A stretch of DNA of 32,000 nt from Massilicoli timonensis. GTDB lineage: Bacteria; Bacillota_I; Bacilli_A; Erysipelotrichales; Erysipelotrichaceae. The position numbers and the translations under genes are program-made. The stretch lies in NCBI RefSeq assembly GCF_900199515.1, contig NZ_LT963434.1, positions 1,502,180 through 1,534,179 on the forward strand, read 5' to 3'. Numbering within the stretch: position 1 is the first letter of the stretch; each line of letters begins with the position of its first letter. A model generated the notes under the pieces. That model was not told the origin of the DNA and ran no database searches. It saw only the letters and a program-made list of their open reading frames with translations. This document shows positions 6,213 to 31,613 of this stretch, in pieces.

Positions 6213-6235
6213 AGACAGAAAGGAGGCGATCGAAG

Positions 6236-16525: not shown

Positions 16526-16548
16526 CTTCTGGACACTTTGTCCAGAGG
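16526..16548. repeat. 23-bp element CTTCTGGACACTTTGTCCAGAGG (10-bp stem, CTT loop), copy 1
   Basis: Identical 23-mer at 17873-17895. It starts 11 nt after the parB-like stop and has no U-tract. Confidence 0.8.
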
Positions 16549-17872: not shown

Positions 17873-17904
17873 CTTCTGGACACTTTGTCCAGAGGCGCTT
17901 TTTT
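17873..17904 (+). terminator. 23-bp element copy 2 plus T-run (terminator-like)
   Basis: CTTCTGGACA-ctt-TGTCCAGAGG followed by cgc and T6. It starts 6 nt after the ardA stop. Confidence 0.5.
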
Positions 17905-19377: not shown

Positions 19378-19428
19378 CTTCTTAATCATGGTTTTTGTCA
19401 TGGTTAGTGAAGCAGTCACTTAGAGCAT
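19365..19428. repeat. 14-bp perfect inverted repeat ATGCTCTAAGTGAC / GTCACTTAGAGCAT with a 36-bp spacer
   Basis: Arms at 19365-19378 and 19415-19428. The spacer contains TCATGG twice. It is followed by TTTCATTTC and then the recombinase RBS. Confidence 0.85.
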
Positions 19429-19450: not shown

Positions 19451-21331
19451 ATGAGAAACGAGAAAATCACCCCTCTGTATGAGCGTTTGAGCCGCGACGA
19501 TGAGTTACAGGGCGAGAGCAACTCCATAAGCCATCAAAAGCAGATGTTAGAGGAGTTTGCCCGCCGGAATGGGCTGCCGAACCCCACACACTTCACCGAT
19601 GACGGCGTATCGGGAACCCGCTTTGACCGTCCCGGCTTTCTGGCGATGATGGAGGAAGTCGAGGCCGGACGGGTGGAGGCCATTGTTATCAAAGACATGA
19701 GCCGTCTGGGGCGTGACTATCTGAAAGTCGGTCAGGTCATGGAGATTTTGCGGCAGCGCGGTGTCCGGCTGATCGCCATCAACGACGGTGTGGACAGTCT
19801 GAAAGGCGACGATGATTTTACCCCGTTCCGCAATATCATGAACGAGTTTTACGCCCGTGACACCAGCCGGAAAATCCGCTCCGTGTTCAAGTCCAAAGGC
19901 ATGAGCGGCAAGCACCTGACCGGCACCGTTATTTACGGCTATCTGTGGGACGAAAAGCGGGAACACTGGCTTGTGGACGAAGAAGCCGCCGAAGTGGTAC
20001 GCCGCATCTTTTCCCTGACGATGGAGGGCTATGGCCCCTATCAAATCTCCAAGCTGCTGTCCGAGGCAAAGGTTGAAATCCCCGCTGTCCATCTGGCACG
20101 CTTTCACGAGGGCGTAAACAGGTCAAAGCCGGTCAAAGACCCCTACGGCTGGGGATCGTCCACCATTGTGAACATCCTGAAAAAGCGGGAATACCTGGGC
20201 CACACCATCAATTTCAAGACCCGCAAACACTTCAAGGACAAGAAAAGCCATTATGTTGACGAAAGCGAGTGGACGATTTTCGAGAATACCCATGAGGCCA
20301 TCATCGACCAGGAAACCTTTGACAATGTGCAGCGCATCCGGGCGAATGTCCGGCGCTACCCGGACGGCTGGGGCGAGGCCCATCCTCTGACCGGCCTGAT
20401 GTACTGCGCCGACTGCGGCGACAAGATGTATGTCCATCGCGTCAATAACGGCAAGCGTGACCCACAGTTTACTTGCAGTCAGTATAGCAAATACCCTATC
20501 GGCTCCCTTTGCCCCACACAGCACCGCATCCGGGCCGAGGCCGTCCTGACCCTGATAACCGATATGCTCCGGGCCATCGCGGAGTATTCCAAGAATGACA
20601 GGGCTGAGTTTATCCGCACTGTCCAGGAAACACAGGCCGCCCAGCAGACCGCCGACATATCCAAGAAACGGAAACGGCTGGCCGCCGCCCAAAAGCGGGC
20701 CGGGGAACTGGAAAAGCTGATTTGCAAAATCTATGAGGACAACGCCCTGGGCAAGCTGCCGGATGCCCGGTATGAAGCCCTGGACGCACAGTATGCCAAA
20801 GAGCAGGACGCTCTCCATGCGGAAATCGCGGAACTGGAAAAGGCCGTTACCGGCTATGAGCAGAGCCGGAAATCTGCGGAGAAGTTTATTGCCCTGATTG
20901 ACAAGTACGAGAATTTTGACACGCTGACAAATACCATGCTCAACGAGTTTGTGGAGAAAATCCTTGTCCATGAACGCGCCCGCAAAGGCAGCCAGGACAC
21001 CACACAGGAGGTTGAAATCTACTTCAACTTTGTGGGCCGCTATATCCCTCCTGCCTTGCAGCCGGTTCCCCTGACCCCGGAGGAACAGGAAGAACTGCGG
21101 AAGAAGGAGGAACGCAAGGACAGGCTTCACCAGAACTACTTGCGCCGCAAGGCAAACGGCAAGCAGAAGGAATGGGAAGAACGCTACAACGCCAGGCGCA
21201 AGGCCCAGGTGGAGGCAGCAAAGGCCGCGATCCGGGCCGAGGACATGGAAAAGGGCGTTTTTATCCCCGTCAGCCAGTTACCCAGGCAGGAGCCGCGCAA
21301 GGCCACCATATCGGCCAGCGCCGCAGTTTAA
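19451..21331 (+). CDS. large serine recombinase (TnpX-like; resolvase domain, recombinase domain, zinc ribbon, DUF4368-like C-terminus)
   Basis: 626 aa. Catalytic-serine motif YERLSRDD, then VIKDMSRLGRDY, then Cys cluster CADCGDKMY...FTCSQY...C, then LNEFVEKILVHE...EIYFNFVG. AGGAGG is upstream. Confidence 0.9.
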   Translation: MRNEKITPLYERLSRDDELQGESNSISHQKQMLEEFARRNGLPNPTHFTDDGVSGTRFDRPGFLAMMEEVEAGRVEAIVIKDMSRLGRDYLKVGQVMEILRQRGVRLIAINDGVDSLKGDDDFTPFRNIMNEFYARDTSRKIRSVFKSKGMSGKHLTGTVIYGYLWDEKREHWLVDEEAAEVVRRIFSLTMEGYGPYQISKLLSEAKVEIPAVHLARFHEGVNRSKPVKDPYGWGSSTIVNILKKREYLGHTINFKTRKHFKDKKSHYVDESEWTIFENTHEAIIDQETFDNVQRIRANVRRYPDGWGEAHPLTGLMYCADCGDKMYVHRVNNGKRDPQFTCSQYSKYPIGSLCPTQHRIRAEAVLTLITDMLRAIAEYSKNDRAEFIRTVQETQAAQQTADISKKRKRLAAAQKRAGELEKLICKIYEDNALGKLPDARYEALDAQYAKEQDALHAEIAELEKAVTGYEQSRKSAEKFIALIDKYENFDTLTNTMLNEFVEKILVHERARKGSQDTTQEVEIYFNFVGRYIPPALQPVPLTPEEQEELRKKEERKDRLHQNYLRRKANGKQKEWEERYNARRKAQVEAAKAAIRAEDMEKGVFIPVSQLPRQEPRKATISASAAV

Positions 21332-21357: not shown

Positions 21358-21711
21358 ATGAACAAATTGACTTACACCCGCTGCGGGGATTACTACATCC
21401 CCGACCTGAAACTTTCCGAGCAGCCGGAGGCCCCCATCGGCAAGTATGGCCGTATGCGGCAACGCTACCTGAAGGAACACCGGCCCGGCCTTTACAGCAG
21501 CTTGGCTTTGAGCGAAAAGCTGTACCCGCACCTGTTGGAGATTGACCGGGCGGCGCGAGAGCGGATAGACGCCATGCTGCCCCGCATGATGGAGGCGGCA
21601 GGCGTCACCGAGGAACTGAAAGCCCATGACCCTATGCGCTGGGTGGGGCTGATGAACACGCTGAAAGCGCAGGTGGAGGAAATTATTTTTCAAGAACTTA
21701 TATTTGTTTGA
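21358..21711 (+). CDS. tnpV: TnpV-like transposon protein
   Basis: 117 aa from MNKLTYTRCGDYYIPDL. IGKYGRMRQRYLKEHRP and HLLEIDR resemble TnpV of Tn4451/Tn4453 (from memory). AAAGGAGGA is upstream of the ATG at 21358. Confidence 0.7.
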   Translation: MNKLTYTRCGDYYIPDLKLSEQPEAPIGKYGRMRQRYLKEHRPGLYSSLALSEKLYPHLLEIDRAARERIDAMLPRMMEAAGVTEELKAHDPMRWVGLMNTLKAQVEEIIFQELIFV

Positions 21712-21714
21712 TTT

Positions 21715-21750
21715 AAGAATGAACGTCAGAAAAATCTGGCGTTCATTCTT
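21715..21750. terminator. bidirectional terminator hairpin between tnpV and the convergent araC-family gene
   Basis: AAGAATGAACGTCAG-aaaaat-CTGGCGTTCATTCTT (15 bp including one G-U pair). The right arm overlaps the last codons of the AraC gene. Confidence 0.7.
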
Positions 21751-22714
21751 TGTTTATCAATTTTCTATACTCTCGTGGTAATAATCCAGTAACACGCTGG
21801 AATTGTTTTGCAAAACTTTCAGACCTATCATATCCAACCGCTTGTGCGATCTCTGCGATGCTTAATTCTGTTCCCATAAGGAGGTGCTGGGCCTGTCCAA
21901 TCCTTTTCTGCAAAATATAATCATAGAGCGTACAGCCGAAACATTCCTTAAAGGCAGCTTTTAACTTCGTCTGCCCCATAAAAGAAATGCGACACAACCT
22001 CTCAATCGGAACAGAAAAGGCATAATGGTTATCCAGATAAGCCGCAACTGCGGAAAGGTTCTCCTGATCCTGCTCTGTCAGATGCAGCTTCTTTTTCTTC
22101 TCCTGGTTGCTTTTAGCCCGCTCCATAATTAAAGAAACCGCTTCTAATATTTTGCCTTCATAAAACATCTTTGCCGTAAGACCTGTTCCCCGGTATCCTT
22201 CGATTTGCTTTAGCAGAGCAATCAATTCAGGGAAATCCGTTCCGATCTGCATTTTACGAAATGCTTCGCTGGGATCAATGTATTCTCCTGGAAATTTCTG
22301 CTGCAAATACCGTTGATAAAACTCCGGCATGATCGTAAAACTGATACTCTGCAAAGGAATATTCTTATGATAAATCGCCTGATACACCCTGCCTGCCTGC
22401 CCGATTTGTGCTTGTAAACTGTTAGGAGAAAGCTGGCGGTAAGGATGAAATTCTTCACCTGACACGGAGGTGTAATAAGTAACAGACAAAAATTCCGGTT
22501 CTGGACACTCTAACATAATGTCATCAAGAAAAAGAAAATCTCTGATGGTGATTTCAAACATATTTTCATAAAAATATACCCAAAAATGCCCTTGCCCCTT
22601 ATCTGCCTGTAAAGTGTAACAGGTAAATTCATTATAAGGCTGCCTGTGTTCGTTATCTAAAAAGAATCCTCCATCAGAAAGCATGGAATGATACATTTCT
22701 TTTATATGTTTCAT
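21743..22714 (-). CDS. AraC/XylS-family transcriptional regulator
   Basis: 323 aa from the ATG at 22714, with AGGTGA 6 nt upstream. The C-terminal double HTH runs ...IERLCRISFMGQTKLKAAFKE...SIAEIAQAVGYDRSESFAKQFQRVTGLLPREYRK. The N-terminal ~200 aa is a putative ligand domain. Confidence 0.85.
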   Translation of the reverse strand: MKHIKEMYHSMLSDGGFFLDNEHRQPYNEFTCYTLQADKGQGHFWVYFYENMFEITIRDFLFLDDIMLECPEPEFLSVTYYTSVSGEEFHPYRQLSPNSLQAQIGQAGRVYQAIYHKNIPLQSISFTIMPEFYQRYLQQKFPGEYIDPSEAFRKMQIGTDFPELIALLKQIEGYRGTGLTAKMFYEGKILEAVSLIMERAKSNQEKKKKLHLTEQDQENLSAVAAYLDNHYAFSVPIERLCRISFMGQTKLKAAFKECFGCTLYDYILQKRIGQAQHLLMGTELSIAEIAQAVGYDRSESFAKQFQRVTGLLPREYRKLINKE

Positions 22715-22729
22715 TGTTGTCACCTATAA

Positions 22730-22766
22730 ATACGCCGTTTGGACGAACTTATACGCCGATACGACG
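22730..22766. promoter_or_regulatory. direct repeats ATACGCCG (22730, 22751) and ATACGACG (22759); candidate AraC-type sites
   Basis: Two perfect 8-mers are spaced 21 bp apart start to start, about two helical turns. They lie in the divergent araC/ecfT intergenic region. Confidence 0.3.
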
Positions 22767-22821
22767 CTCCTTTCCAAAATCCATTGTGAAAGCAAAAGTC
22801 TCGTACTATACTTAGAAACGG

Positions 22822-22843
22822 TGATTAGTTAGAGCTAACCACT
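22822..22843. promoter_or_regulatory. DtxR/IdeR-box-like palindrome tgatta-GTTAG-ag-CTAAC-cact
   Basis: The core GTTAG..CTAAC matches the core of the remembered DtxR consensus TTAGGTTAGCCTAACCTAA, but with a 2-nt centre instead of 1 nt. It lies between the candidate promoter TTGTGA-17-TATACT (22784-22812) and the ecfT RBS. Confidence 0.3.
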
Positions 22844-22894
22844 TGATATTGTAGCACATACCTGTTGTTTTCACAAGGTAAAGGAGGTGAAAAT

Positions 22895-23617
22895 ATGCGG
22901 ATGAGTTTTAAGGCATCAATGCCGGACCCCCGCATTTTAATTATACAGATTGTCGTGGTGGCGGTATTGGCATCGGTATTTCGGAATCTGCTCGCATTAT
23001 TTCTTTTAGTGCTGATTGTAGATTTCCTGCTGTTACTTCAATGCGGGTGGGCGGTTTTCTGGAAAAACCTTCTGTCCTATGCAGCTATGCTGCTGATACT
23101 GTTTGCGCTGCAAGAGATATACATTCCGATTGTTTCGGATTTGTTTCCGCTTTTCCTTTTGTTGATGGCGAGGCTATATCCGGCGTATTTGGCAGTGAGG
23201 GTTCTGATTGAAAAAGCGCCAATGGATGAACTGCTTTTTTCATTGGAAATCTGGCGTTTTCCAAAATTAGTGTTGATCCCGTTGGCAGTTATTTATCGTT
23301 ACATACCAACGATATTGAAAGAGATCGGATACATTCGGGAAAGCCTTAAAATGCGGAATCTCCATTCCTCTATGTGGGATAAGGTATGCCATCCAATGCA
23401 AAATGTAGAAAACTTTTTTGTCCCACTTTTATATCGCAGTGAAAAAATTTCGGAAGAATTGTCTGCCGCTTCAATCTGCAAAGGGCTTAGCACAAAAAGA
23501 AAACGAACGTGCTGCACGAAAGTGAAACTAGGGGTAACAGATCTTATCTACTTGCTTTGTGTTGCGCTCCTTGCGGCAGGTTTAGCATTTATCAACTATC
23601 ATGTGATTTTACTTTAG
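22895..23617 (+). CDS. ecfT: ECF transporter transmembrane (T) component, CbiQ/EcfT family
   Basis: 240 aa from the ATG at 22895, with AAGGAGG upstream. About five TM helices and a cytoplasmic coupling-helix-like segment EIGYIRESLKMRNL. Confidence 0.65.
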   Translation: MRMSFKASMPDPRILIIQIVVVAVLASVFRNLLALFLLVLIVDFLLLLQCGWAVFWKNLLSYAAMLLILFALQEIYIPIVSDLFPLFLLLMARLYPAYLAVRVLIEKAPMDELLFSLEIWRFPKLVLIPLAVIYRYIPTILKEIGYIRESLKMRNLHSSMWDKVCHPMQNVENFFVPLLYRSEKISEELSAASICKGLSTKRKRTCCTKVKLGVTDLIYLLCVALLAAGLAFINYHVILL

Positions 23618-23636
23618 ATGGGAAGGAGGCATGAGA

Positions 23637-25118
23637 ATGAACCAGCCTGTCATTGAATTTTCAAACTTTAGTTTTACCTATCATAATGCTGACTCAGAAA
23701 GTCTGACAGGGATTGATTTAATCATTCGTAAGGGTGAATTTATCCTTTTGACAGGACATAGCGGCTGTGGCAAGACCACATTGACCCGCTGCATAAATGG
23801 GCTTATCCCGGATTTTTTCGAGGGGGACCTTTCAGGGAAATGCCGCGTTTGCGGTATGGATATTGCAGAACATGAAACAGGTGAGTTTTCACCGTTGGTC
23901 GGTTCGGTATTTCAAGACCCACGTTCTCAGTTTTTTACACTTCATGTCAAAACGGAAATTCCGTTTCCAAGCGAAAACCTGGGAACACCTATGGATAAAA
24001 TGCAGGAGCAATATGAAAAAGCGGTGGACGTTTTACAAATTCAGGGCTTACTTGGAAAGAGCATTTTCGACCTTTCCAGCGGCGAAAAGCAGAAGGTAGC
24101 CATTGCGTCAATTTATATGGTGGGAGTCGGAATTTATGTCTTGGACGAACCATCGGCCAATCTGGATTCGGAGGGTACAGAGCAGCTTCGTCAAGTATTA
24201 AAATCCCTCAAAGAGCAGGGTAACACCATCATCATTTCGGAGCATAAGCTCTACTACCTCAACGGGCTTACGGATCGTGTTCTGATTATGAAGGACGGAA
24301 AAATTGATAAAGAGATGGAAGGCAGGGTTTTCGACCGGCAGACAGCAGAATGGTTTACAAGGCATGGCCTGCGAAAATCCGATCTCGCACTTATTACACC
24401 AAAATCCTACCATCCTGTTAAGGGAGATGTCTCCATTCAAATAAAGAATTTGTCCTTTGGTTATCCGGGAAAACCGCTGTTATGGCACGATGTTACCTTT
24501 TCCGCTCATGGTGGAGAGATCATCGGTATCATTGGAAAGAACGGAGCCGGAAAAAGCACATTGATCCGAACACTTATGGGGCTTGAAAAGCCAAAGACCG
24601 GGAAAATTTCTATCAACGGAAGTTACTCCGGCAAGCAGCAGCGGCGAAAAAAATCTTTCTATGTCATGCAGGATGTAGATTATCAGCTATTTGCTCCGAA
24701 TGTATTGGAGGAAATGCTGATGGGTACGAAAAAGACAGAGATAGAAAAAGAACAGGCCATTTGTAAGCTGGAGAATTTGGGATTGGGAAAATTCCTGAAA
24801 AGGCACCCCACAGCTTTATCCGGTGGACAAAAGCAGCGGCTTTCTATTGCATTGGCAGAAATGAACCGTTTACCGCTTCTCTACCTTGATGAACCGACCA
24901 GCGGACTGGACGCAGAGAATATGAAGATTGTCCAGACTGAAATAAAAAAGCTGGCTGAAGGTGGCGCGTGTGTGTTTGTCATTACCCACGATTATGAATT
25001 TGCCGCAGAGCTTTTTTCTTCCCTTCTTCTTTTACAGGAGGATGGTACGATACAGTATCTTTCCCCTGATAAGTACAAGCCGGAAAACCTGGCTCAATAT
25101 TTTCAAATTTCATTCTAA
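23637..25118 (+). CDS. ECF-type duplicated ATPase (fused A-A' components)
   Basis: Two NBDs. The first has GHSGCGKTT, LSSGEKQKVAIA and IYVLDEPSANLD. The second has GKNGAGKST, LSGGQKQRLSIA and LLYLDEPTSGLD. ATG 23637 has better SD spacing than ATG 23631. Confidence 0.9.
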   Translation: MNQPVIEFSNFSFTYHNADSESLTGIDLIIRKGEFILLTGHSGCGKTTLTRCINGLIPDFFEGDLSGKCRVCGMDIAEHETGEFSPLVGSVFQDPRSQFFTLHVKTEIPFPSENLGTPMDKMQEQYEKAVDVLQIQGLLGKSIFDLSSGEKQKVAIASIYMVGVGIYVLDEPSANLDSEGTEQLRQVLKSLKEQGNTIIISEHKLYYLNGLTDRVLIMKDGKIDKEMEGRVFDRQTAEWFTRHGLRKSDLALITPKSYHPVKGDVSIQIKNLSFGYPGKPLLWHDVTFSAHGGEIIGIIGKNGAGKSTLIRTLMGLEKPKTGKISINGSYSGKQQRRKKSFYVMQDVDYQLFAPNVLEEMLMGTKKTEIEKEQAICKLENLGLGKFLKRHPTALSGGQKQRLSIALAEMNRLPLLYLDEPTSGLDAENMKIVQTEIKKLAEGGACVFVITHDYEFAAELFSSLLLLQEDGTIQYLSPDKYKPENLAQYFQISF

Positions 25119-25135
25119 AAAAGGAGTGTGTCGCT

Positions 25136-25735
25136 ATGAGAAATCAAACAAAAGAAAGTCGTAGATTGAAGGATTTAATCCGAATTGGCGTTTTCAGTGC
25201 GCTGTGGGTTGTGATTGGCTTCCTGGTGGCCTTTACGATTGGATTTTTCCCACCAATTTTATTGGTTCTTCCCTGTGTCCTCGGAATTATCGGTGGGATT
25301 GTCTATGTTGTCATGTTATCAAAGCTGACAATCCCAGGTGGTATTTTAATCAGTTCATTTCTGCTGGGTATCTGCCTGTTTACGATGGCTCCTTATGGCA
25401 TGATGTTCTTCTGCACTGTGGCTGGCGGTGTGATCGGAGAAATCCTTTATAGTGTTTTGGGGAGGCGTACAACCAAAGCAACGATGGTAGGTTCCTCCTT
25501 CGCTTTGGTAGGGCTGGCTCTCGGTGAATACATACCGTTCATCTGGATGCAGGACGCCTATCGTTCCATGCTGGTGAATGATGATTCCGGCCTTCTGGAA
25601 ATTGCTGAATGGTGCATGAATATCGTTTCTGTTCCGGTCATGATTGTGCTGTGCGTGGCAACGGTTACTCTCACCTGTCTGGGTGTGCTTTGGGGAAATA
25701 AAATCGTAAAAAAACGCCTTTCCAATGCGGAATAG
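25136..25735 (+). CDS. MptD/Trep_Strep-family putative ECF substrate-capture (S) component
   Basis: 199 aa, six hydrophobic helices and a basic C-terminal tail (KIVKKRLSNAE). The N-terminus LKDLIRIGVFSALWVVIGF is typical of the family (from memory). AAGGAG is 9 nt upstream. Confidence 0.55.
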   Translation: MRNQTKESRRLKDLIRIGVFSALWVVIGFLVAFTIGFFPPILLVLPCVLGIIGGIVYVVMLSKLTIPGGILISSFLLGICLFTMAPYGMMFFCTVAGGVIGEILYSVLGRRTTKATMVGSSFALVGLALGEYIPFIWMQDAYRSMLVNDDSGLLEIAEWCMNIVSVPVMIVLCVATVTLTCLGVLWGNKIVKKRLSNAE

Positions 25736-25757
25736 GCGGTAAAAGGAGTTGAAAATT

Positions 25758-27572
25758 ATGAGCAAAGAAAAAAAGCAAAAGACAGGCATCCCGCGTTTGC
25801 TGGAGATGGCCGGACAACGAAAAACTCTGATGATTGTCGGTGCTTCGCTTTCAACGATTGCGGCTTTGTTTCAGTTAGCTCCCTATCTGGCAGTTTATAA
25901 GGTTATGACGGAGCTTCTGCGTAATGCCGCAGATATTAGTCAGGTGGACACTTCCTATATGACTTTTTGGGCTTTATTCGGAATTGTCGGGTTGGTGATC
26001 TGCTATGTGTTTATGTATGTGGGTGGCATGATCGGTCATATCGAGGCTTATCGTACCCTCTATGGAATCCGTGTAAAGCTGTCCGAACATATCAGCGGAT
26101 TGCCTTTGGGGTGGTTCAGCCGCAACTCTATCGGTAAGGTAAAGCAGATTGCGGAGCAGGATGTGGAACAGATTGAACTTTTCATTGCCCATCAGTTCCC
26201 GGATATGATTAGTACCATTGCTGTGATAGTATTTATGGTCATTGTGATGTTCAGCCTGAATATCTGGCTGGCCCTTGCCTGCATCCTACCGATTATTGTC
26301 GGGTTTGTTGTGCAGTTCTCCTTTATGTTCGGCTCTAAGGCCAAAGAAGGACTCAAGGAATACTACGATGCAATGGAAAATATCAACACATCATCGGTTC
26401 AATATGTGCGGGGTATGCCCTCAATCAAAATTTTTGGTCAGACTGTGCGCTCTTTCCGAAAATTCTATGATGATATTATTGCCTACCGTGATATGACAAC
26501 GAAATATGCGGATAACTATGAACCTTGTTATGTCCTGTTCCGTGTATTTGTACTTTCACTTTCCGCATTTATCATCCCTGTGGGTATGCTGTTTCTTACC
26601 GGCAATCCGCAGAATATGGCATTTGCTATGACGCTGCTGTTCGTGTTAATCTTCGCGCCGGGAATTGCTACACCTGTGTTTAAGTTTAATAATTTTGGTT
26701 CCAGCTTCAACAATATCAATGAAGGGGTACGGCGCATTGACGAAGTGTTAAGCACAAGTGAGGTAACAGAGCCGCAGAACAGCAAAAAGCCCGCCGGATA
26801 TACCATTGAATTTCACGATGTATCCTTTTCTTATGAGGATGGTCCAAAGGTGTTGGATCATGTGAGTTTTACCGCTGAGCAGGGAAAGATAACAGCGCTT
26901 GTAGGACCTTCCGGATCTGGTAAATCAACGATTGCACAGCTTATTCCACGGTTTTGGGATGTACAGGAAGGCAGCATAACGATTGGCGGCATAGACATCC
27001 GGGATATGAGAACGGAAGATTTAATGAATACCATGTCTTTCGTATTTCAGGACTGTTTCCTGTTCTCTGATACGCTCTATAACAACATTGCTGTGGGAAA
27101 ACCCGGTGCTACAAGAGAAGAAGTTTATGCAGCGGCAAGGGCAGCGCAATGCCATGAGTTCATTGAGAAGCTGCCCCAGGGTTACGATACCTTAATCGGG
27201 GAAGGCGGTGTTTATCTATCAGGAGGCGAGGAACAACGTGTTTCTGTGGCAAGAGCGATCTTGAAAAATGCTCCGATCCTGATTCTTGATGAAGCAACCG
27301 CCTATGCTGATCCAGAGAATGAATTTCAAATGCAGTTGGCATTACAAGAACTGATTAAAAACAAGACAGTATTGATTATTGCTCACCGGCTGATGACCAT
27401 TCGGAACGCCAATAAGATTATGGTCATCAAACATGGAAAAATCGAAGAAACAGGAACCCATGACCAACTTCTGGCAAATGAAAGAACCTATCATAAGATG
27501 TGGGCGGCCTACACAGCTTCGTCCGATTGGGAACTGAAAAAAGGAACAGATAAGGAGGTGGCAAAGGCATGA
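25758..27572 (+). CDS. ABC transporter permease/ATP-binding protein (type IV exporter fold), heterodimer subunit 1
   Basis: 604 aa. Six-helix TMD plus an NBD with GPSGSGKST, LSGGEEQRVSVARA, ILILDEATAYAD and IAHRL. The stop overlaps the next start (ATGA at 27569-27572). Confidence 0.9.
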   Translation: MSKEKKQKTGIPRLLEMAGQRKTLMIVGASLSTIAALFQLAPYLAVYKVMTELLRNAADISQVDTSYMTFWALFGIVGLVICYVFMYVGGMIGHIEAYRTLYGIRVKLSEHISGLPLGWFSRNSIGKVKQIAEQDVEQIELFIAHQFPDMISTIAVIVFMVIVMFSLNIWLALACILPIIVGFVVQFSFMFGSKAKEGLKEYYDAMENINTSSVQYVRGMPSIKIFGQTVRSFRKFYDDIIAYRDMTTKYADNYEPCYVLFRVFVLSLSAFIIPVGMLFLTGNPQNMAFAMTLLFVLIFAPGIATPVFKFNNFGSSFNNINEGVRRIDEVLSTSEVTEPQNSKKPAGYTIEFHDVSFSYEDGPKVLDHVSFTAEQGKITALVGPSGSGKSTIAQLIPRFWDVQEGSITIGGIDIRDMRTEDLMNTMSFVFQDCFLFSDTLYNNIAVGKPGATREEVYAAARAAQCHEFIEKLPQGYDTLIGEGGVYLSGGEEQRVSVARAILKNAPILILDEATAYADPENEFQMQLALQELIKNKTVLIIAHRLMTIRNANKIMVIKHGKIEETGTHDQLLANERTYHKMWAAYTASSDWELKKGTDKEVAKA

Positions 27573-29308
27573 AAAAGACAAATCCTATTTATCAGGTGAC
27601 GGCGGGAAATCCAAAGAAACTGAAAAAGCCGGTGATCTGGACGGTTGTTACCAATATAAATCTGTTTTCTTTTATGTTCCTGGCACTGTTTGTTATCACG
27701 ATATATTCCTTCTTTGCCGGGGATGCCGGTTCGCTGGATATTAAGACCTTATGGCTTTCATGGGGAGGCATTTTAGCGACTTCCGTTGTGGTATATATTT
27801 TGGAGCGCAAGGCTACTCATGCTACCTTCCATGACGGTTACGCAACGAGTGCGGACGGTCGTATCCGCCTCGCAGAGCATATCCGCAAATTGCCTTTAGG
27901 TTTTCTGATGAGCAAGGACTCCGGCGAATTGGGAAATACCATGATGAATGATTTTAGCCAGATTGAGGAAGGCGTTACCCACATTTTGCCGCAGCTTATC
28001 AGTGGTATCATCGTCGCATTTCTGGCTTTGTTCGGAATGGCTTTTGCTGATTGGCGTATGGCACTGGCTATGTTTGCCGGACTTCCTGTGACCTTCTTAA
28101 TCCTTTGGGGTGTCCGTGTGATTGACCGCAAGCGCGGTGCTGCACATACAAAAGCCAGAATTGAACAAACGAACCGCTTGCAGGAATATCTGACCGGAAT
28201 GAAGGTAATAAAAGCATATAACCTGCGGGGGGCGAATTTCAAAAAGCTGGAGCGGGCGTTCTACAATTTTATGAAAGAAAGCATTAAGCTGGAAGGTGTG
28301 TCTGGCCCGTTTTATCTGATAGCAGTTGCGTTCTTACAGATTGGACTTTCAATGATTACGATGGTCGGCACTTATCTGCTTCTTGGAGGAACACTGGAGC
28401 TGCCAATGTTTATTATCTTTCTTTTAGTCGGTTCCCGTGTATTTGATCCGTTGGTAAGTGCGATTACTCAACTCCCTGTGTTTACTTATCAGGCTGCTGC
28501 GGGAAAGCGCATTGTAGATTTACTGGAAGAACCAACAATGCAGGGTGACGGAGAAGCCCCGAAGGATCACGATGTTATCTTTGAAAATGTCACCTTCGGT
28601 TATGGGGAGGATGTTGTCCTTCACAATGTCAATGCGAGTTTCCCGAAAGGAACTATGACAGCGATTGTCGGACCTTCTGGCAGCGGAAAAAGTACAATGC
28701 TACGGCTGATTGCCCGGTTCTATGATCCACAGAATGGTATTGTTCGTTTTGGAGGTGTTGACGAAAAGACGGTTGATCCGGAAAAACTGATGTCTAAAAT
28801 ATCTGTGGTCTTTCAGGATGTATATTTGTTCCAGGATACCATCGGCAACAACATCCGCTATGGCCGGGAAAATGCCACGCAGGAAGAAATTGAAGCAGCC
28901 GCAAAACTGGCTCATTGTCACGACTTCATCATGGCTCTGCCGGATGGCTATGACACAATGGTTGGAGAAGGCGGCTCCACGTTGTCAGGTGGTGAGAAAC
29001 AGCGAATTTCTATCGCCCGCGCAATTTTGAAAGACGCCCCTGTACTGCTGTTAGATGAAGCAACTTCCTCCCTTGATCCGGAAAATGAAGTGGAGGTTCA
29101 GCAAGCCATCGAAGAACTCGTGAAAGACCGTACTGTGGTAATGATCGCCCATAAATTGAAAACGATTGCCGGGGCCGATCAAATCATTGTATTGGATCAG
29201 GGCGAGGTAAAAGAAGTGGGTACACATAAGGAACTGATGGATAATCATGGTCTATACCGGCATTTGTGGGATATTCAGCAGACTACAGCCGGTTGGCAAA
29301 TCAATTAG
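27569..29308 (+). CDS. ABC transporter permease/ATP-binding protein, heterodimer subunit 2
   Basis: 579 aa. NBD with GPSGSGKST, LSGGEKQRISIARA, LLLLDEATSSLD and IAHKL. Translationally coupled to subunit 1. Confidence 0.9.
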   Translation: MKKTNPIYQVTAGNPKKLKKPVIWTVVTNINLFSFMFLALFVITIYSFFAGDAGSLDIKTLWLSWGGILATSVVVYILERKATHATFHDGYATSADGRIRLAEHIRKLPLGFLMSKDSGELGNTMMNDFSQIEEGVTHILPQLISGIIVAFLALFGMAFADWRMALAMFAGLPVTFLILWGVRVIDRKRGAAHTKARIEQTNRLQEYLTGMKVIKAYNLRGANFKKLERAFYNFMKESIKLEGVSGPFYLIAVAFLQIGLSMITMVGTYLLLGGTLELPMFIIFLLVGSRVFDPLVSAITQLPVFTYQAAAGKRIVDLLEEPTMQGDGEAPKDHDVIFENVTFGYGEDVVLHNVNASFPKGTMTAIVGPSGSGKSTMLRLIARFYDPQNGIVRFGGVDEKTVDPEKLMSKISVVFQDVYLFQDTIGNNIRYGRENATQEEIEAAAKLAHCHDFIMALPDGYDTMVGEGGSTLSGGEKQRISIARAILKDAPVLLLDEATSSLDPENEVEVQQAIEELVKDRTVVMIAHKLKTIAGADQIIVLDQGEVKEVGTHKELMDNHGLYRHLWDIQQTTAGWQIN

Positions 29309-29319
29309 GAGAAATATTT

Positions 29320-29691
29320 ATGAAACTTCATGCGTCCGGGGAGGACTACCTGGAAACCATCCTTGTTCTCCAAAAGAAACTCGGTATGGTACGCTCCGTA
29401 GATGTGGCCCGGCACATGGAGGTGTCAAAACCCAGCGTGTGCCATGCAGTGGCTACCTTGCGGGACGGCGGCTTTCTCACAATGGACGAAGATCACTTTC
29501 TTCATCTGACCGATGTGGGCCGCGAGGTTGCCGAAAAAATCTATGAGCGCCATTGCTTTTTTACCGAGCAGCTTATCGCCGCAGGCGTTGACCCAAAAAC
29601 TGCGGAGGCCGATGCCTGCCGGATTGAACACATCATCAGCGATGAAAGCTTTTCACGGTTGAAAGAGGCAGCCGCACAAGACCAAGAATAA
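29320..29691 (+). CDS. DtxR/MntR-family metal-dependent transcriptional regulator (two-domain form, no SH3-like domain)
   Basis: 123 aa from the ATG at 29320, with AGGAG 8 nt upstream. SGEDYLETILVL, wHTH VDVARHMEVSKPSVCHAVATL, and dimerization/metal region ERHCFFTEQL...ACRIEHIIS. Confidence 0.8.
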   Translation: MKLHASGEDYLETILVLQKKLGMVRSVDVARHMEVSKPSVCHAVATLRDGGFLTMDEDHFLHLTDVGREVAEKIYERHCFFTEQLIAAGVDPKTAEADACRIEHIISDESFSRLKEAAAQDQE

Positions 29692-30127
29692 ACCAAATAA
29701 GACAAGCTATCCTGCCCCGCTAAACGGGGAAAGAAAAAAACCGTTGCAGGGCAGACAGCTTCGTGCGCCTATAATGGATTTTCAGGGTACTGCGGCGGTT
29801 TTGAGTAACATCAAGGCCGCCGTTCCTTATGCCCTCGACAAAGGAGTGACGCCTATACGCTGACACGGCGGCTTTAGGAGGGAGCCGCCATGAAGCACAC
29901 TGACCGCCGACAAATTCAGACGATATTTGAACTATCGTCAAAAAAAGCCCGGCCACCGAACAGCCCCCGTCCGGCAGCCAGTGCGAAAATTGTCACAATG
30001 TAACTGAATACCGTATTTTTTGCGCTCGAATAGCTTTCTGCTGTCCGGGCGTTTTTTCATACCTGTGGGGCCGGAACATCGGGCCAACATGGCCCGAACC
30101 TTGCCCCCGGTGCCGTTCCCCGCCGCC

Positions 30128-30160
30128 CCGTTCAGATTTTCCCGCAAAAAATCTGAACGG
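30128..30160 (+). promoter_or_regulatory. perfect 13-bp hairpin/palindrome abutting the SD of the first sigma-like gene
   Basis: CCGTTCAGATTTT-cccgcaa-AAAATCTGAACGG. The 3' arm overlaps the first bases of GGAGG (30158-30162). Confidence 0.6.
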
Positions 30161-30171
30161 AGGAAAGGCAG

Positions 30172-30585
30172 ATGGAAGTCACCATCCATTACAACGGACA
30201 AGCTGTGGCCGTAGAGGTCACGCTGGAAGTCTATGAATTTCTTGACCGGGCTGACCACAAAGCCGAGAACCTGTCCCATGAGCAGCGGCGGCATTGGGAT
30301 GGCCGGGAGTTTGACGAATACATAGTTGCCACCGAGGGCGTGGGTATCTACGGCGAAACGCCGGAGGAATACCTTTGCCGCATGGAAACACTGGGCGAGC
30401 TGATGGCCGTCCTGGACACCTGCACCGAGGCCCAGCGCCGCCGGTTCCTGCTCTATGCCCTGGACGGGCTGACCCTTGCGGAGATCGGGACGGTGTGCGG
30501 CTGCTCCAAAGTATCCGTCCATGAGAGCATTGACGCGGTTCGGAAAAAATTTTTGAAATTCTTTGCGAACTACCCTAACGAATGA
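30172..30585 (+). CDS. small sigma-70 region-4-like HTH protein (paralog 1, most divergent)
   Basis: 137 aa. C-terminal CTEAQRRRFLLYALDGLTLAEIGTVCGCSKVSVHESIDAVRKKF resembles sigma region 4 / LuxR-type HTH. Confidence 0.65.
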   Translation: MEVTIHYNGQAVAVEVTLEVYEFLDRADHKAENLSHEQRRHWDGREFDEYIVATEGVGIYGETPEEYLCRMETLGELMAVLDTCTEAQRRRFLLYALDGLTLAEIGTVCGCSKVSVHESIDAVRKKFLKFFANYPNE

Positions 30586-30633
30586 CCCCTTTTCGGGCTA
30601 CCAAGTGAAAGGGATTGTTTCCCTTATCCCAGC

Positions 30634-30674
30634 GGGAGGCGGACAGCGGACAAGCTGCCCGCCTCTCCCATTTT
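30634..30674 (+). terminator. terminator/attenuator-like hairpin between sigma-like genes 1 and 2
   Basis: GGGAGGCGG...CCGCCTCTCCC stem with an inner CAGC/GCTG extension, followed by ATTTT. It ends directly before the RBS of the next gene. Confidence 0.45.
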
Positions 30675-30688
30675 CAGGAGGTAAGCCT

Positions 30689-31141
30689 ATGAAAACAATC
30701 AATCTGCGGTGGATTTATCCCCACTACCGGCATGACGAGTTTGTGGAGGTCAGCGATGAAGTTTGGGAGGTCATGCGGCAGGCCCAGCGCGAAATGAACA
30801 ACTATGAGCGCCGGAAGGTCTACCACCGCGCCTACTACTCTCTGGACGCATATAGCTGGACGGAGAACTACGCGCTGGAACACAGCAGATCGCCGGAGGA
30901 AATCCTTTTGGAGCGTGAGGAACGGGCCGTCCGCCTGCGGCTGATTGCCGCCTTGCCGGAGGCCCTGTCTCATGCCACCCCAACACAGGCCCGCCGCGTC
31001 CGGGCCTACTACATCGCCGGTATCAACCAGCCCAAAATTGCCCGGATGGAGGGCGTACACAGCAGCAAGGTCAGCGTTGCCATCCGGCGGGGCCTGCGGA
31101 ATATGCACCGCTGCTATGACGGCCTTTTCCCGTCAGAGTGA
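30689..31141 (+). CDS. small sigma-70 region-4-like HTH protein (paralog 2)
   Basis: 150 aa from MKTINLRWIYPHY. AGGAGG is upstream. Motifs FVEVSDEV, YYSLD, SPEEILLERE and the HTH PTQARRVRAYYIAGINQPKIARMEGVHSSKVSVAIRRG. The track ORF start at 30563 is rejected. Confidence 0.75.
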   Translation: MKTINLRWIYPHYRHDEFVEVSDEVWEVMRQAQREMNNYERRKVYHRAYYSLDAYSWTENYALEHSRSPEEILLEREERAVRLRLIAALPEALSHATPTQARRVRAYYIAGINQPKIARMEGVHSSKVSVAIRRGLRNMHRCYDGLFPSE

Positions 31142-31151
31142 GGGTGGGCCT

Positions 31152-31613
31152 ATGCAGACGATCAATCTCAAACAGTATTACCCGTTCTGCACCGAGGACA
31201 CCTTTGTGGAGGTGTCGGATGAAATTGTCGAGGCGTTCCTGCTGGACAAGCGGGCCGAGGCCGCCAGGGAGCGCAAGATGTACCGCTACAAGGCGTTTTA
31301 CTCCCTTGACTGCAATGATGGGATTGAGAACGCCGCCATTGGCGGGGCGCAGCCATCGCCGGAGGATTTCCTGATGGAAAAGGAGGCGCAGGCCGAATAT
31401 GCCGAACTGCTCCGGCGGCTCTATGAGGCCCTTTCCTCTTTGCCCCCAACGCAGGCCCGCCGTGTCCATGCCCGGTATATGCTGGGGATGAAAGTGAAGG
31501 ACATTGCCGCGATGGAAGGTATCACCCCATCCCAGGCAGGAAAGTCCATCCATGCGGCGCTCCGGCGGCTGCGCCGGTACTTCATACGCCGGAAATGGAC
31601 AAGCGGCCTATGA
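31152..31613 (+). CDS. small sigma-70 region-4-like HTH protein (paralog 3)
   Basis: 153 aa from MQTINLKQYYPF, with the same motif set (FVEVSDEI, FYSLD, SPEDFLMEKE, PTQARRVHARYMLGMKVKDIAAMEG). The upstream in-frame run from 30945 overlaps paralog 2 and is rejected. Confidence 0.75.
   Translation: MQTINLKQYYPFCTEDTFVEVSDEIVEAFLLDKRAEAARERKMYRYKAFYSLDCNDGIENAAIGGAQPSPEDFLMEKEAQAEYAELLRRLYEALSSLPPTQARRVHARYMLGMKVKDIAAMEGITPSQAGKSIHAALRRLRRYFIRRKWTSGL

Follow-up and report, generated by a model that had tools for sequence, protein, structure and literature searches.

A putative metal-regulated ECF and ABC transporter cassette carried by a Tn6104/Tn4451-like transposon in Massilicoli timonensis

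The window analyzed here is a stretch of 32,000 nucleotides from contig NZ_LT963434.1 of Massilicoli timonensis. It contains part of a mobilisable transposon, whose cargo we read, with a probability of about 55%, as a self-contained module for uptake under metal control, with a metal chelate (a metallophore or xenosiderophore) as the most likely substrate. The original prediction, made from the same DNA, had likewise argued for a metal or metallophore acquisition module, and this reading is supported by the match of one protein to the MptD family, the likeness of the ABC transporter to siderophore importers, a conserved operator-like box, the mobility of the block and the metal-starvation response of its studied relatives. 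Direct observations comprise the genes present and their family assignments, the mobility of the element, the polymorphism of the cassettes and the conservation of operator and repeats.

The Carrier Transposon

The cargo travels on a mobilisable transposon of about 18 kb that resembles Tn6104/Tn4451 and is inserted in the VirD4 gene of an ICE. Its features in the window are as follows.

18370..19357, + strand: 5′ half of VirD4 (CD1115 family), which encodes the coupling protein of the ICE and is interrupted by the transposon
19357..19428, + strand: left end of the TnpX element, GGAGATGTATGC..., defined by junction alignment
19451..21331, + strand: tnpX-like large serine recombinase of 626 aa (Pfam Resolvase, Recombinase, Zn_ribbon_recom and DUF4368)
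21358..21711, + strand: tnpV, 117 aa (PF14198 TnpV, 144 bits), the constant left flank of the cassette slot
29692..32000, + strand: transposon backbone, continued, 94–97% identical to the backbone of a related locus, L017

The VirD4 fragment matches Pfam T4SS-DNA_transf and, over model positions 1–208 of 442 only, NCBIfam NF045973. Sequence shared with other copies of the element starts at 19350–19357. When the window and nine other loci were aligned at the junction (n = 10), the flanks were unrelated through GGAGA and identical thereafter, and four unrelated left flanks shared the join GGAGATG, which fits an element with a fixed end and GA as its 2-bp crossover. The left end also contains a 19-nt inverted repeat with arms at 19365–19383 and 19410–19428. 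The GC-rich DNA on the right (29.7–32 kb), which had been taken for part of the surrounding ICE, belongs instead to the TnpX element. It contains tandem sigma70_r4-like reading frames (30172–30585, 30689–31141, 31152–31613 and 31610 onwards), and the transposon runs past base 32000, that is, past the window. In related loci, the right part encodes DUF3847, MobA/MobL, Rep, IstB-like and TnpW proteins; MobA_MobL, Phage_rep_org_N, IstB-like and TnpW genes are seen in near-identical copies elsewhere and here lie beyond base 32000.

The TnpX element is common in human-gut Firmicutes. Its host genera include Acetatifactor, Eisenbergiella and Christensenella, and an S component identical to that of the window is found on at least 1000 contigs (WP_087225116.1, MULTISPECIES [Clostridia]). 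Copies of the element lie in at least four different flanks, from Lachnospiraceae, Oscillospiraceae, Christensenella and probably Massilicoli. The earlier proposal that the block moves between hosts as transposon cargo is thus borne out by these different insertion contexts.

Compared to known transposons, the element most resembles Tn6104 of C. difficile R20291, of the Tn4451/Tn4453 family, which has a TnpX-related recombinase and TnpV at its left end, followed by accessory genes and then three sigma-factor-like genes, MobA/MobL, a toxin–antitoxin pair and a phage-type replication gene, and which uses a 2-bp target and is nested in a conjugative transposon (PMC3158075). However, the cargo of Tn6104 is a two-component system and an ABC transporter and that of Tn4451 is catP, whereas the present element carries an AraC/ECF/ABC cargo followed by a constant dtxR and exists with several exchangeable cassette types.

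The Variable Cassette

The complete set of seven genes that had been predicted between tnpV and the right backbone was recovered by Pfam and NCBIfam profile searches.

21715..21750, no strand: hairpin with a 16-bp stem between the convergent tnpV and araC genes, the left edge of the variable region
21743..22714, − strand: AraC-family regulator, 323 aa, with a C-terminal HTH_18 domain
22895..23617, + strand: EcfT/CbiQ T component, 240 aa (PF02361 CbiQ)
23631..25118, + strand: fused EcfA-A′ ATPase (two ABC_tran domains, both NBDs canonical)
25136..25735, + strand: MptD/Trep_Strep putative ECF S component, 199 aa (PF09605, TIGR02185)
25758..27572, + strand: ABC half-transporter 1, type IV/exporter fold (ABC_membrane and ABC_tran)
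27569..29308, + strand: ABC half-transporter 2 (ABC_membrane and ABC_tran)
29320..29691, + strand: two-domain DtxR/MntR-family regulator, 123 aa, without an SH3 domain (PF01325 and PF02742)

The ecfT start was taken from gene calls in identical loci. A 141-aa dtxR reading frame starting at 29266 was an over-call, and the start was refined to 29320. The description of the whole block as AT-rich and foreign to its carrier holds for the cassette (44.1% GC compared to 56.3% for tnpX–tnpV) but not for dtxR (53.0%), which belongs to the backbone. The right flank has 57.6% GC, and the carrier overall has 56–58% compared to 44% for the cassette. The AT-rich variable block is 21712–29319, and dtxR lies compositionally and evolutionarily in the constant backbone flank. 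At the other edge, identity to L017 falls from 94% to 65% at the tnpV/araC hairpin.

At least five very different cassettes, all with the same gene content, can occupy the tnpV–dtxR slot. Between cassette types, identity is 21–30% for the S components, 21–27% for AraC, 23–29% for EcfT and 33–40% for the ABC proteins. In contrast, dtxR is 97–100% identical across types, with an identical DtxR protein downstream of four other cassette types, and tnpV is 86–94% identical among elements with other cassettes. Every cassette type, and distant loci as well, keep ecfT, ecfAA′ and the S component adjacent, most diverged loci have an araC gene linked to the module, and the synteny of ECF module and ABC pair extends from Clostridia to Propionibacteriaceae, that is, across phyla.

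The polymorphism of the cassettes bears on the possibility that the module takes up haem or another tetrapyrrole (or a corrinoid) under iron control. There are parallels for such a system: the exporter-fold ABC transporter Rv1819c imports cobalamin, and DtxR controls haem uptake in corynebacteria. Moreover, the iron-regulated haem ECF transporter LhaSTA of Staphylococcus lugdunensis provides a precedent for ECF-based metal acquisition under a metal repressor, although it is regulated by Fur and has neither a paired ABC transporter nor an AraC regulator (PMC7299338). However, there are at least five cassette types that diverge strongly and have separate AraC sensors, which argues for many ligands rather than one conserved cofactor and leaves this reading quite improbable.

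The ECF Module

The ecfT, ecfAA′ and S-component genes are co-oriented and separated by gaps of 13–17 nt, the arrangement that defines a group I (dedicated) module. As predicted, the S component is a member of the MptD family: it scores 93.0 bits against TIGR02185 (cutoff 76.45) and 110.3 bits against PF09605 (cutoff 28.7), with 181 of 185 profile positions covered. Proteins of this family are strongly hydrophobic, have about 190 aa and carry a basic motif near the C-terminus, and the S component has all of these traits, with 199 aa, 6–7 membrane helices in an all-helical model and the C-terminal sequence NKIVKKRL. The database description of TIGR02185 counted two members in pneumococcus when the family was first described.

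No sequence match to the S component was found in the PDB. In a Foldseek search with its AlphaFold model (pLDDT 86.9), the top match was 5edl, an ECF S-component that we take to be YkoE, with a probability of 0.99 but a TM score of only 0.47 (E 0.09, 17% identity); RibU gave TM scores of 0.44–0.49, and all others were below 0.3. YkoEDC, the system of the best structural neighbour, is also a group I ECF transporter with a dedicated module and a fused double ATPase. However, it is a thiamine-related vitamin system without metal regulation.

The same module could be viewed as an importer of a bare divalent cation, as in CbiMNQO and NikMNQO, serving free metal-ion homeostasis while the ABC pair moves a different, metal-linked substrate. 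EcfT does match CbiQ, the ATPase scores 252.8 bits for the cbiO subfamily (cutoff 211.8), a DtxR-type regulator would be in control, and the Mn, Fe and Zn content is altered in the mutant of the related pneumococcal system (bioRxiv 10.1101/367086). On the other hand, the S component is not CbiM/NikM-like and no invariant His or Cys was found among type-A homologues. In addition, an ion importer would need no AraC co-activator, and S components that are 21–30% identical, each with its own AraC sensor, are a better fit to diverse organic ligands. We therefore consider free-ion import unlikely compared to the uptake of a metal chelate.

The ABC Half-Transporter Pair

The reading frames of the two half-transporters overlap by 4 nt. 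Both nucleotide-binding domains contain Walker A, LSGGE, the Walker B catalytic Glu and the H-loop His, which gives two consensus ATP sites. In comparisons of the full-length pair with solved structures, YbtP (332 bits) and YbtQ (324 bits) scored above Sav1866 (271–280 bits) and MsbA (269 bits), with YbtQ the closest solved half-transporter to the second subunit. The membrane domain of the first subunit alone is closest to IrtA (68.6 bits), followed by YbtP (46 bits), compared to 30–32 bits or less for exporters. The membrane domain of the second is no closer to importers than to exporters (45.8 bits for the "ABC exporter" 9x4a_B, 45.5 for YbtP and 41.7 for Sav1866), which counts against an uptake function. 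The suggestion that the pair is importer-like is favoured by the full-length proteins and the membrane domain of the first subunit, while that of the second is equivocal.

YbtPQ and IrtAB are under a metal repressor (Fur or IdeR), and Ybt is also under the AraC-type activator YbtA. Like them, the element encodes a heterodimeric ABC transporter of exporter fold, and they supply the best-scoring solved half-transporters for both subunits (PMC7002159, PMC11779899). However, the matches are distant, with full-length E values of about 1e-90 to 1e-98 that are mostly driven by the nucleotide-binding domains, and the element's pair, which occurs in Gram-positive anaerobes without biosynthesis genes, is invariably accompanied by an ECF importer. 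The siderophore-interaction domain of IrtA is absent from the element's pair and from YbtPQ as well.

Two further explanations turn on the direction of the ABC pair. First, it might be an AraC-activated MDR-type exporter of drugs, antimicrobial peptides or toxins that is spread by the transposon, with the ECF module as an unrelated vitamin importer. In NCBIfam, the pair comes closest to MsbA-, Smd- and Tet(46)-like models without reaching any of their cutoffs, the equivocal membrane domain of the second subunit fits this view, Tn4451-family elements classically bear resistance genes, and YbtPQ itself can reduce antimicrobial susceptibility (PMC7876324). However, the strict ECF–ABC synteny across phyla, a putative metal-repressor-type operator before every unit, including separate ABC-pair units, and the lack of an antibiotic phenotype in the SP1434 mutant (bioRxiv 10.1101/367086) all argue against efflux. 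So do the two canonical ATP sites, which resemble those of YbtPQ and IrtAB. Many heterodimeric exporters of Firmicutes have one degenerate site. We regard efflux as having very little likelihood.

Second, the two transporters might form a shuttle, in which the ABC pair exports an apo-chelator or other host-made small molecule and the MptD-type ECF transporter re-imports its metal-loaded form, resembling the logic of staphylopine CntE/CntABCDF. An importer combined with an exporter-fold transporter would account for their invariable pairing, for which the metal-chelate reading offers no reason. Furthermore, the Propionibacteriaceae homologues adjoin AMP-binding/PP-binding and PPTase genes plus an MFS gene, and the mpt cluster of M. 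avium subsp. paratuberculosis (MAP) lies beside a siderophore synthesis cluster (PMC4298942). However, the mobile cassettes have no biosynthetic genes and are spread over families that would need one common product, and the membrane domain of the first subunit is specifically closest to the importer IrtA. Cassette types C and D have a common ABC pair (83–85% identical) but do not share the ECF module, and this swap argues that no matched substrate is needed between the two transporters. A shuttle consequently appears improbable, and uptake by both transporters is preferred.

Regulatory Sites and the DtxR-Family Regulator

The region between araC and ecfT contains the following candidate sites.

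22730..22766, + strand: direct repeat ATACGCCGTTTGGACG / ATACGCCGATACGACG, 21 bp start to start, candidate AraC sites
22784..22812, + strand: promoter-like site TTGTGA-17-TATACT for the transporter operon (consensus match only)
22821..22842, no strand: palindromic 22-bp operator GTGATTAG-TTAGAG-CTAACCAC, proposed binding site of the DtxR-family protein
22876–22848, − strand: promoter-like site TTGTGA-17-TACAAT with TG, which could serve araC (consensus match only)

The operator core TTAGTTAGAGCTAA (TTAG-N6-CTAA) at 22825–22838 is the only occurrence of this pattern in the window. One such match is unsurprising, with 0.37 expected per 32 kb and at least one in 36 of 100 shuffles; what makes it significant is that diverged loci have it at the matching promoter position. 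The GTGGTTAG-N6-CTAACCAC palindrome lies just 3′ of the −10 element of each transcription unit in cassette types A–E and in other Clostridia. TTAG-N6-CTAA is found 46–90 nt from the ecfT or S-component start in nearly all diverged loci and also precedes separate ABC units, as well as araC in types C and D. In 658 kb, there are 47 matches compared to about 13 expected, clustered at these promoters, and none was found in the backbone of the related locus L041. The Propionibacteriaceae homologues have a near-canonical DtxR/IdeR box, TTTAGGTTAGCCTAAGC. The DtxR-like box noted upstream of the operon is therefore real, and GTGGTTAG-N6-CTAACCAC is a candidate DtxR operator, proposed from its sequence and placement. 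Its N6 spacing, which would fit one dimer, is unlike the canonical 19-bp DtxR box and counts against the metal-chelate reading. Repeats of other sequence with the same 21-bp spacing occupy the same position as the candidate AraC sites in L013, L016, L017, L025 and L027. The N-terminal domain of AraC (about 220 aa) gave no family match in Pfam and NCBIfam profile searches.

The regulator itself matches PF01325 (39.6 bits) and PF02742 (44.1 bits), both above cutoff, reached no NCBIfam equivalog cutoff and has E. coli MntR, DtxR and IdeR as its best solved relatives. D9, E12, H78, C100, E103 and H104 could all serve as metal ligands, and they align with M10/C102/E105/H106 and H79 of DtxR and with D8/E11/H77/E99/E102/H103 of MntR. 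These positions are invariant in homologues with 46–48% identity except position 9, which is Asp in the element protein and Asn in Clostridium homologues. The location of dtxR at the 3′ end of an operon that its product would repress counts against the metal-chelate reading.

Comparison With Related Systems

Two studied systems share most of these components. First, the SP1433–SP1438 operon of S. pneumoniae encodes, by its published description, two ABC half-transporters and the S, T and A components of an ECF transporter together with an AraC regulator, and TPEN, acting through this regulator, raises its expression more than 100-fold (bioRxiv 10.1101/367086). In contrast to the element, it is chromosomal, its ABC pair precedes the ECF genes, its published account mentions neither a fused ATPase nor a DtxR gene or box, and it responds to Zn and Co (bioRxiv 10.1101/367086). 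Second, the mptABC/mptDEF genes of MAP (LSP14), the namesake of MptD, lie on a horizontally acquired island (PMC4298942, PMC4132290). The predicted resemblance to mpt-type clusters was confirmed, as an IrtAB-like ABC set adjoins MptD, an ATPase and a T component there and metal starvation induces the genes (PMC4298942). However, mptABC is induced by zinc starvation via Zur (FurB) and not DtxR, there are three ABC genes, and the setting is a genomic island of 38–90 kb with siderophore synthesis genes instead of a serine-recombinase transposon (PMC4298942). Neither study (bioRxiv 10.1101/367086, PMC4298942) names a substrate, in agreement with the earlier statement that none is established for the MptD family. 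Since these two relatives respond to zinc or cobalt and not to iron, via Zur or AraC and not via DtxR, the metal may differ in the present element, which counts against the metal-chelate reading.

Proposed Mechanism and Implications

We infer the binding of DtxR to the operator, the metal sensed, ligand sensing by AraC, the direction of transport and the substrate, which would combine as follows. When metal is plentiful, the element's DtxR-family repressor would bind GTGGTTAG-N6-CTAACCAC, which is predicted to lie where transcription of the transporter operon, and probably also that from the divergent araC promoter, begins, and would shut down both the operon and araC. Metal limitation would lift the repression. 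The cassette-specific AraC protein, bound upstream of the promoter to the two direct repeats with their 21-bp spacing, would then activate transcription upon sensing a small-molecule ligand. A metal repressor, an AraC activator and an importer form the established arrangement of YbtA, PchR and AlcR. Two transporters would be produced: an ECF importer of the dedicated type (group I), in which the MptD-family S component would capture the ligand, and an IrtAB/YbtPQ-like heterodimeric ABC transporter with two presumably active ATP sites. The element has no metallophore biosynthesis genes, lipoprotein receptor or reductase, which counts against the metal-chelate reading.

As the cassette types differ in the AraC sensor domain, the S component and the ABC membrane domain, they would differ in ligand specificity. 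Collectively, the combination of an MptD-type ECF transporter, a siderophore-importer-like ABC pair and an AraC regulator under a conserved DtxR suggests that the element most likely spreads metal-chelate uptake.

Gene Content and Composition of the Block

Pfam and NCBIfam scans located, at the block, all of the genes named in the original prediction. The interpretation attached to these genes was supported overall, with corrections to the limits of the element and to the status of dtxR.

Genes of the block and of its carrier (window positions)
18370–19377: VirD4-type coupling protein, first half only (positions 1–208 of 442 of model NF045973)
19451–21331: large serine recombinase with DUF4368, 626 aa (Pfam)
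21358–21711: TnpV (Pfam)
21743–22714, minus strand: AraC-family regulator (Pfam/NCBIfam)
22895–23617: EcfT/CbiQ (Pfam/NCBIfam)
23631–25118: fused double ECF ATPase, EcfAA′ (Pfam/NCBIfam)
25136–25735: Trep_Strep/MptD-family S component (TIGR02185, 93.0 bits; cutoff 76.45)
25758–27572: half-transporter ABC1, ABC_membrane plus ABC_tran
27569–29308: half-transporter ABC2, ABC_membrane plus ABC_tran, overlapping the ABC1 reading frame by 4 nt
29320 (start ATG): two-domain DtxR/MntR-family regulator with a good ribosome-binding site, 12 nt past the ABC2 stop

The S component scored above the TIGR02185 cutoff, as expected from its proposed membership of the MptD family. Walker A, the signature motif, and Walker B with its glutamate are of consensus sequence in both half-transporters and in both halves of the ECF ATPase. 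A pattern scan recovered the H-loop histidine in both half-transporters and in the second ECF ATPase half but not in the first.

The GC content of the window is ~38–46% up to roughly 14.5 kb, ~51–64% (1-kb windows) both at 14.7–21.7 kb and from 29.7 kb onward, and 40–48% in a block at about 21.7–29.3 kb. By part, it is 44.1% in the cassette, 56.3% in tnpX–tnpV, 53.0% in dtxR, and 57.6% in the right flank. Two other features were observed outside the block. Three or four tandem paralogous ORFs for ABC-2-type membrane proteins lie at 2054–7606 in the low-GC chromosomal part, three of them of 514 aa with 151-nt overlaps as called (PF12679/PF12730, checked for the first one). Downstream of ICE genes, the 23-nt palindrome CTTCTGGACACTTTGTCCAGAGG is found in identical form at 16526–16548 and 17873–17895, with a weaker copy at 15445–15467; it could serve as a repeated terminator or as a protein-binding site.

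Carrier Element, Insertion, and Host Range

The VirD4 ORF lies within an ICE-like region with ParB, ArdA, and DUF3801. Because this ORF is cut to its first half directly before the recombinase genes, the recombinase element is judged from the sequence to be inserted in the VirD4 gene of the ICE. The exact S-component protein was looked up in public assemblies, which yielded ten loci with the gene order TnpX–TnpV–AraC–EcfT–EcfAA′–S–ABC–ABC–DtxR. Past DtxR, these loci continue with three or four sigma70_r4-like ORFs, DUF3847, and MobA/MobL, and then with genes for a Cys-rich protein, a replication protein of phage type, and an IstB-like ATPase; further loci, found by an exact DtxR look-up, also have a RelB/ParE pair and TnpW. 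This architecture is that described for Tn6104 of C. difficile, a mobilisable transposon of the Tn4451/Tn4453 family nested in a conjugative transposon (PMC3158075). The shared gene order in other copies places the GC-rich DNA at 29.7–32 kb, previously taken for ICE, in the same transposon. The attL inverted repeat, whose recurrence would mark the right end, is present only once in the window. The right end lies past base 32000, and the whole transposon is about 18 kb long, judged from L041 (loci L001–L049 are homologous loci in other public assemblies and contigs). When the whole element was searched against a plasmid database with megablast, the recombinase alone was matched, at 74–79% identity, and no annotated relative was found.

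Alignment of the left junctions showed that the sequence is identical from GGAGATGTATGC (window 19357) onward and that the DNA before it is unrelated. Five junctions lie in VirD4 genes (the window, L002, L006, L010, and L017), with identical codon context in differing VirD4 genes, and four in a sugar-ABC/AraC locus (L001, L003, L008, and L009); L005 has its junction in a MobA/MobL gene and L007 at another place. TnpX uses a 2-bp crossover (PMC3158075), with which the GA dinucleotides at the junctions are consistent. The target context in VirD4 encodes K-Y-K-L-A-x-G and reads ...AAGCTGGC....GGAGA (window 19300–19361; ~4170–4230 in L002, L006, L010, and L017), and the VirD4 stretch 5′ of the junction is ~65–71% identical to that of the window in the two loci compared (L010 and L017). 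The junction sequences suggest that ICE coupling-protein genes are a preferred target of the TnpX element. The insertion truncates VirD4 and should block ICE transfer unless the element excises.

Further features of the carriers were also noted. In L001 (17362–20334), three consecutive tyrosine-recombinase genes are inserted at the position that the MobA/MobL relaxase occupies in other copies. At 30172–32000 of the window, tandem paralogous small ORFs resembling sigma70 region 4, with a period of ~460 bp and GCCTATGAAAACAATCAA before each, correspond to the "three sigma factor-like proteins" of Tn6104. L004 and L012 (6426–14531), which lack tnpX, carry the window's cassette (type A) together with a 125-aa DtxR variant and 152 bp of residual tnpV, beside phage-like genes (DUF2800, PDDEXK, and DNA polymerase A). 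This indicates that recombination has also transferred the cassette to an element of another kind.

The identical S component (WP_087225116.1, "MULTISPECIES ... [Clostridia]") is found on at least 1000 contigs. Acetatifactor and Candidatus Eisenbergiella are among the named hosts in which the cassette is identical or nearly so. Recombinase and DtxR clusters bear names from Coprococcus, Faecalibacterium, and Ruthenibacterium, and the chromosomal flank of the window clusters with Massilicoli timonensis (Erysipelotrichaceae).

A Polymorphic Slot between tnpV and dtxR

The exact look-up of the 123-aa DtxR protein placed it 3′ of at least four further cassettes in the same slot. These have the same content (AraC, an MptD-family S component, EcfT, fused EcfAA′, and two ABC half-transporters) in differing order and with differing sequences. 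Among types A–D, identity is 21–30% for the S component, 21–27% for AraC, 23–29% for EcfT, 41–44% for EcfAA′, and 33–40% for the ABC proteins. Nucleotide identity between the window and types B–D ends at the tnpV stop codon and restarts exactly at the dtxR ATG. A fifth type, L017 from Christensenella sp. Marseille-P2438, is 93–97% identical to the window in the backbone and 55–80% in the cassette, with breakpoints at the hairpin after tnpV and within the 3′ end of ABC2. All cassettes have a GC content of 44–48%, compared to 56–58% for the backbone. By these alignments, the variable region of the window is assigned to 21712–29319, for which the description as AT-rich cargo holds. GC composition and identity across cassette types rule out dtxR as part of that cargo, and dtxR is best placed as the constant right flank.

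The ABC pairs of types C and D are 83–85% identical and their AraC proteins 60% identical, and their ECF modules are unrelated (S component 27%), which implies that the two transporters are exchanged as separate modules. In L013 (10001–10591, uncultured Eubacterium), the S component is 56% identical to that of the window, compared to 88% for AraC, 80% for EcfAA′, and 92% for the ABC pair, suggesting that only the S gene was replaced. Type C elements carry additional genes 4–5 kb 3′ of dtxR, namely, a second AraC with an S–EcfT–EcfAA′ set in L044 (12809–16372) and a second AraC in L049 (12576–14011). These second sets have their own TTAG-N6-CTAA site, and methyltransferase and hydrolase genes lie between dtxR and the set.

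Proposed Operator and Regulators

The 180-bp spacer between araC and ecfT contains, in order, a 16-nt direct repeat at 22730 and 22751 (21-bp spacing), a promoter-like site TTGTGA-17-TATACT at 22784–22812, and, 9 nt past it, the palindrome GTGATTAG-TTAGAG-CTAACCAC at 22821–22842. It is this palindrome that had been predicted as a DtxR-like box, and it is kept at the promoters of diverged loci. With a free 6-nt spacer, it lies 46–90 nt 5′ of the first transporter gene in the diverged Clostridial loci L013, L016, L017, L025, L026, L027, and L038, and it is also found 5′ of separately transcribed ABC pairs (L023, L025, L026, and L034), of a DtxR gene (L027), and of araC, the S gene, and ABC1 in cassette types B–D. 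The TTAG-N6-CTAA core occurs once in the window with 0.37 expected, a count not significant by itself; over 658 kb, there are 47 matches against ~13 expected, with the surplus located at these promoters, and none in the L041 backbone. As a canonical 19-bp DtxR box, the palindrome matches at only 12 of 19 positions, and the conserved unit is TTAG-N6-CTAA. The DtxR/IdeR consensus is TTAGGTTAGCCTAACCTAA, and it holds two overlapping TTAG-N6-CTAA units. In Propionibacteriaceae, where the S component is just 32–38% identical, the site reads TTTAGGTTAGCCTAAGC, close to this consensus.

An RNA hairpin was rejected, as the half-sites keep their sequence instead of covarying, with no constraint on the spacer. 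This pattern of conservation argues for a protein-binding site. The upstream direct repeats keep their position and 21-bp spacing, and their sequence varies together with the AraC protein, as expected for candidate sites of an AraC-type activator. Promoter-like sites on opposite strands flank the operator (22784–22876; plus-strand −10 at 22807–22812, minus-strand −10 at 22853–22848), enclosed by a 15-nt inverted repeat (22784–22798/22862–22876). With opposed promoter-like sites across one operator, a single operator could repress both araC and the transporter operon.

The DtxR protein has potential metal ligands D9, E12, H78, C100, E103, and H104, which cover every metal-binding position of DtxR and MntR; position 9 is Asp as in MntR, and position 100 is Cys as in DtxR. 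Clostridium homologues of 46–48% identity keep all of these residues except that at position 9, which varies between D and N. AraC genes recurrently adjoin the ECF and ABC-pair cluster in distant loci. An AlphaFold model of AraC, computed without an alignment, was set aside (pLDDT 52.7, N-terminal domain below 50).

Transporters and Their Relatives

The MptD-type S proteins form a diverse family of modest size: at 50% identity, they make up 713 clusters among 1.84 billion representatives. No relative of the S component was found in the PDB by sequence. Its AlphaFold model (23 homologues; pLDDT 86.9, pTM 0.82) matched 5edl (probability 0.99, TM 0.47) and RibU (TM 0.44–0.49), with all others below 0.3; this supportive but borderline result points to ECF S components as the sole meaningful structural neighbours of the model. 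Among type A homologues, the S component has no invariant His or Cys, which fits a carrier of organic chelates better than one of bare ions. An importer of bare ions, to which a metalloregulator would also be suited, is an improbable reading.

Neither ABC half-transporter reached an NCBIfam equivalog. Compared to solved half-transporters over the full length, ABC1 scored 332 bits with YbtP, 307 with YbtQ, and ~303 with IrtA, above Sav1866 (271) and MsbA (269), and ABC2 scored 324 with YbtQ, 302 with YbtP, and 285 with IrtA, above Sav1866 (280). The membrane domain of ABC1 alone scored 68.6 bits with IrtA and 46 with YbtP versus 30–32 with exporters and is, by these scores, clearly nearest to IrtA and YbtP; that of ABC2 was equivocal between importers and exporters. 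Drug efflux, with which the equivocal ABC2 domain is compatible, is considered unlikely.

The synteny of the ECF transporter and the ABC pair is kept from Clostridia and Tissierella to Propionibacteriaceae. In the latter, the cluster is preceded by the near-canonical DtxR/IdeR box, and a phosphopantetheinyl transferase gene follows ABC2 (L029, L033, L035, and L036, ~14020–14930; L031). L031 (1525–7669) also has an MFS gene and AMP-binding/PP-binding (NRPS-like) genes upstream. These neighbours hint that a synthesised small molecule is involved. A shuttle that both exports and imports such a compound has little probability in our estimate, ABC1 being nearest to importers.

The MptD-family ECF transporter and the IrtAB-like ABC pair are found together in the pathogens M. 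paratuberculosis and pneumococcus, and Treponema denticola is another pathogen with an MptD-family system. The pneumococcal SP1433–1438 operon, with the same gene content as the cassette, is induced more than 100-fold by TPEN, an effect that Zn or Co reverses; induction needs the AraC regulator SP1433, and a mutant differs in its Mn, Fe, and Zn content and shows no antibiotic phenotype (bioRxiv 10.1101/367086). The lack of an antibiotic phenotype in this closest studied relative fits chelate uptake over drug efflux. In M. paratuberculosis, mptABC, which adjoins mptDEF, is induced by zinc starvation via Zur, and mptD is required for survival in macrophages (PMC4298942, PMC4132290). Literature searches (MptD, Trep_Strep, ECF with siderophore, and TnpX with ECF) found no paper on the transposon-borne cassette, its DtxR operator, or its polymorphism.

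A Model and Its Implications

The cassette is best read as a metal-repressed, ligand-activated uptake module, to which we assign a probability of roughly 55%. Metal-loaded DtxR would occupy the operator where transcription starts. Under metal scarcity, the AraC protein specific to the cassette would act from the two upstream repeats to activate both transporters, the ECF importer and the pair resembling IrtAB/YbtPQ. In siderophore systems, Fur or IdeR works with YbtA, PchR, or AlcR, and the proposed control by DtxR and AraC copies this logic. We infer DtxR binding, the metal, the ligand, the direction in which the ABC pair transports, and the reason for the constant pairing of an ECF importer with an exporter-fold transporter. 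The joint diversification of AraC sensors, S components, and ABC membrane domains behind a constant repressor and operator fits varied chelates, and uptake of varied organic metal chelates explains the data better than that of a few bare ions or than drug efflux. Haem or corrinoid uptake is given a low probability.

A further proposal, possible but rather doubtful, is that the Tn6104-like backbone and its invariant dtxR together serve as a platform of broad host range dedicated to cassette exchange. On it, at least five metallophore-uptake cassettes of differing specificity, each with its own AraC, MptD-type S component, and IrtAB-like pair on a common DtxR operator, would be swapped between constant tnpV and dtxR flanks. 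If so, a single transposition step would let gut Firmicutes gain piracy of different foreign metal chelates, and MptD-family ECF transporters would be the first ECF systems for metallophores.

The transporter module itself belongs to a known but uncharacterised family; to our knowledge, no description exists of its placement in an exchangeable slot of a widespread Tn6104-like transposon, under a conserved DtxR operator. The locus offers three openings for testing what MptD-family systems carry. First, the conserved DtxR-type operator before every unit predicts the condition that switches the system on. Second, types A–E are natural specificity variants, with AraC sensors and S components matched, and can be used to fish for ligands. 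Third, the mobile version is very common in human-gut commensals and self-contained and can be transferred to a model host. Siderophore piracy in Gram-positive anaerobes is, as far as we know, little studied. If the cassettes import metal chelates, horizontally exchangeable uptake modules in these organisms would shape the competition for metals in the gut.
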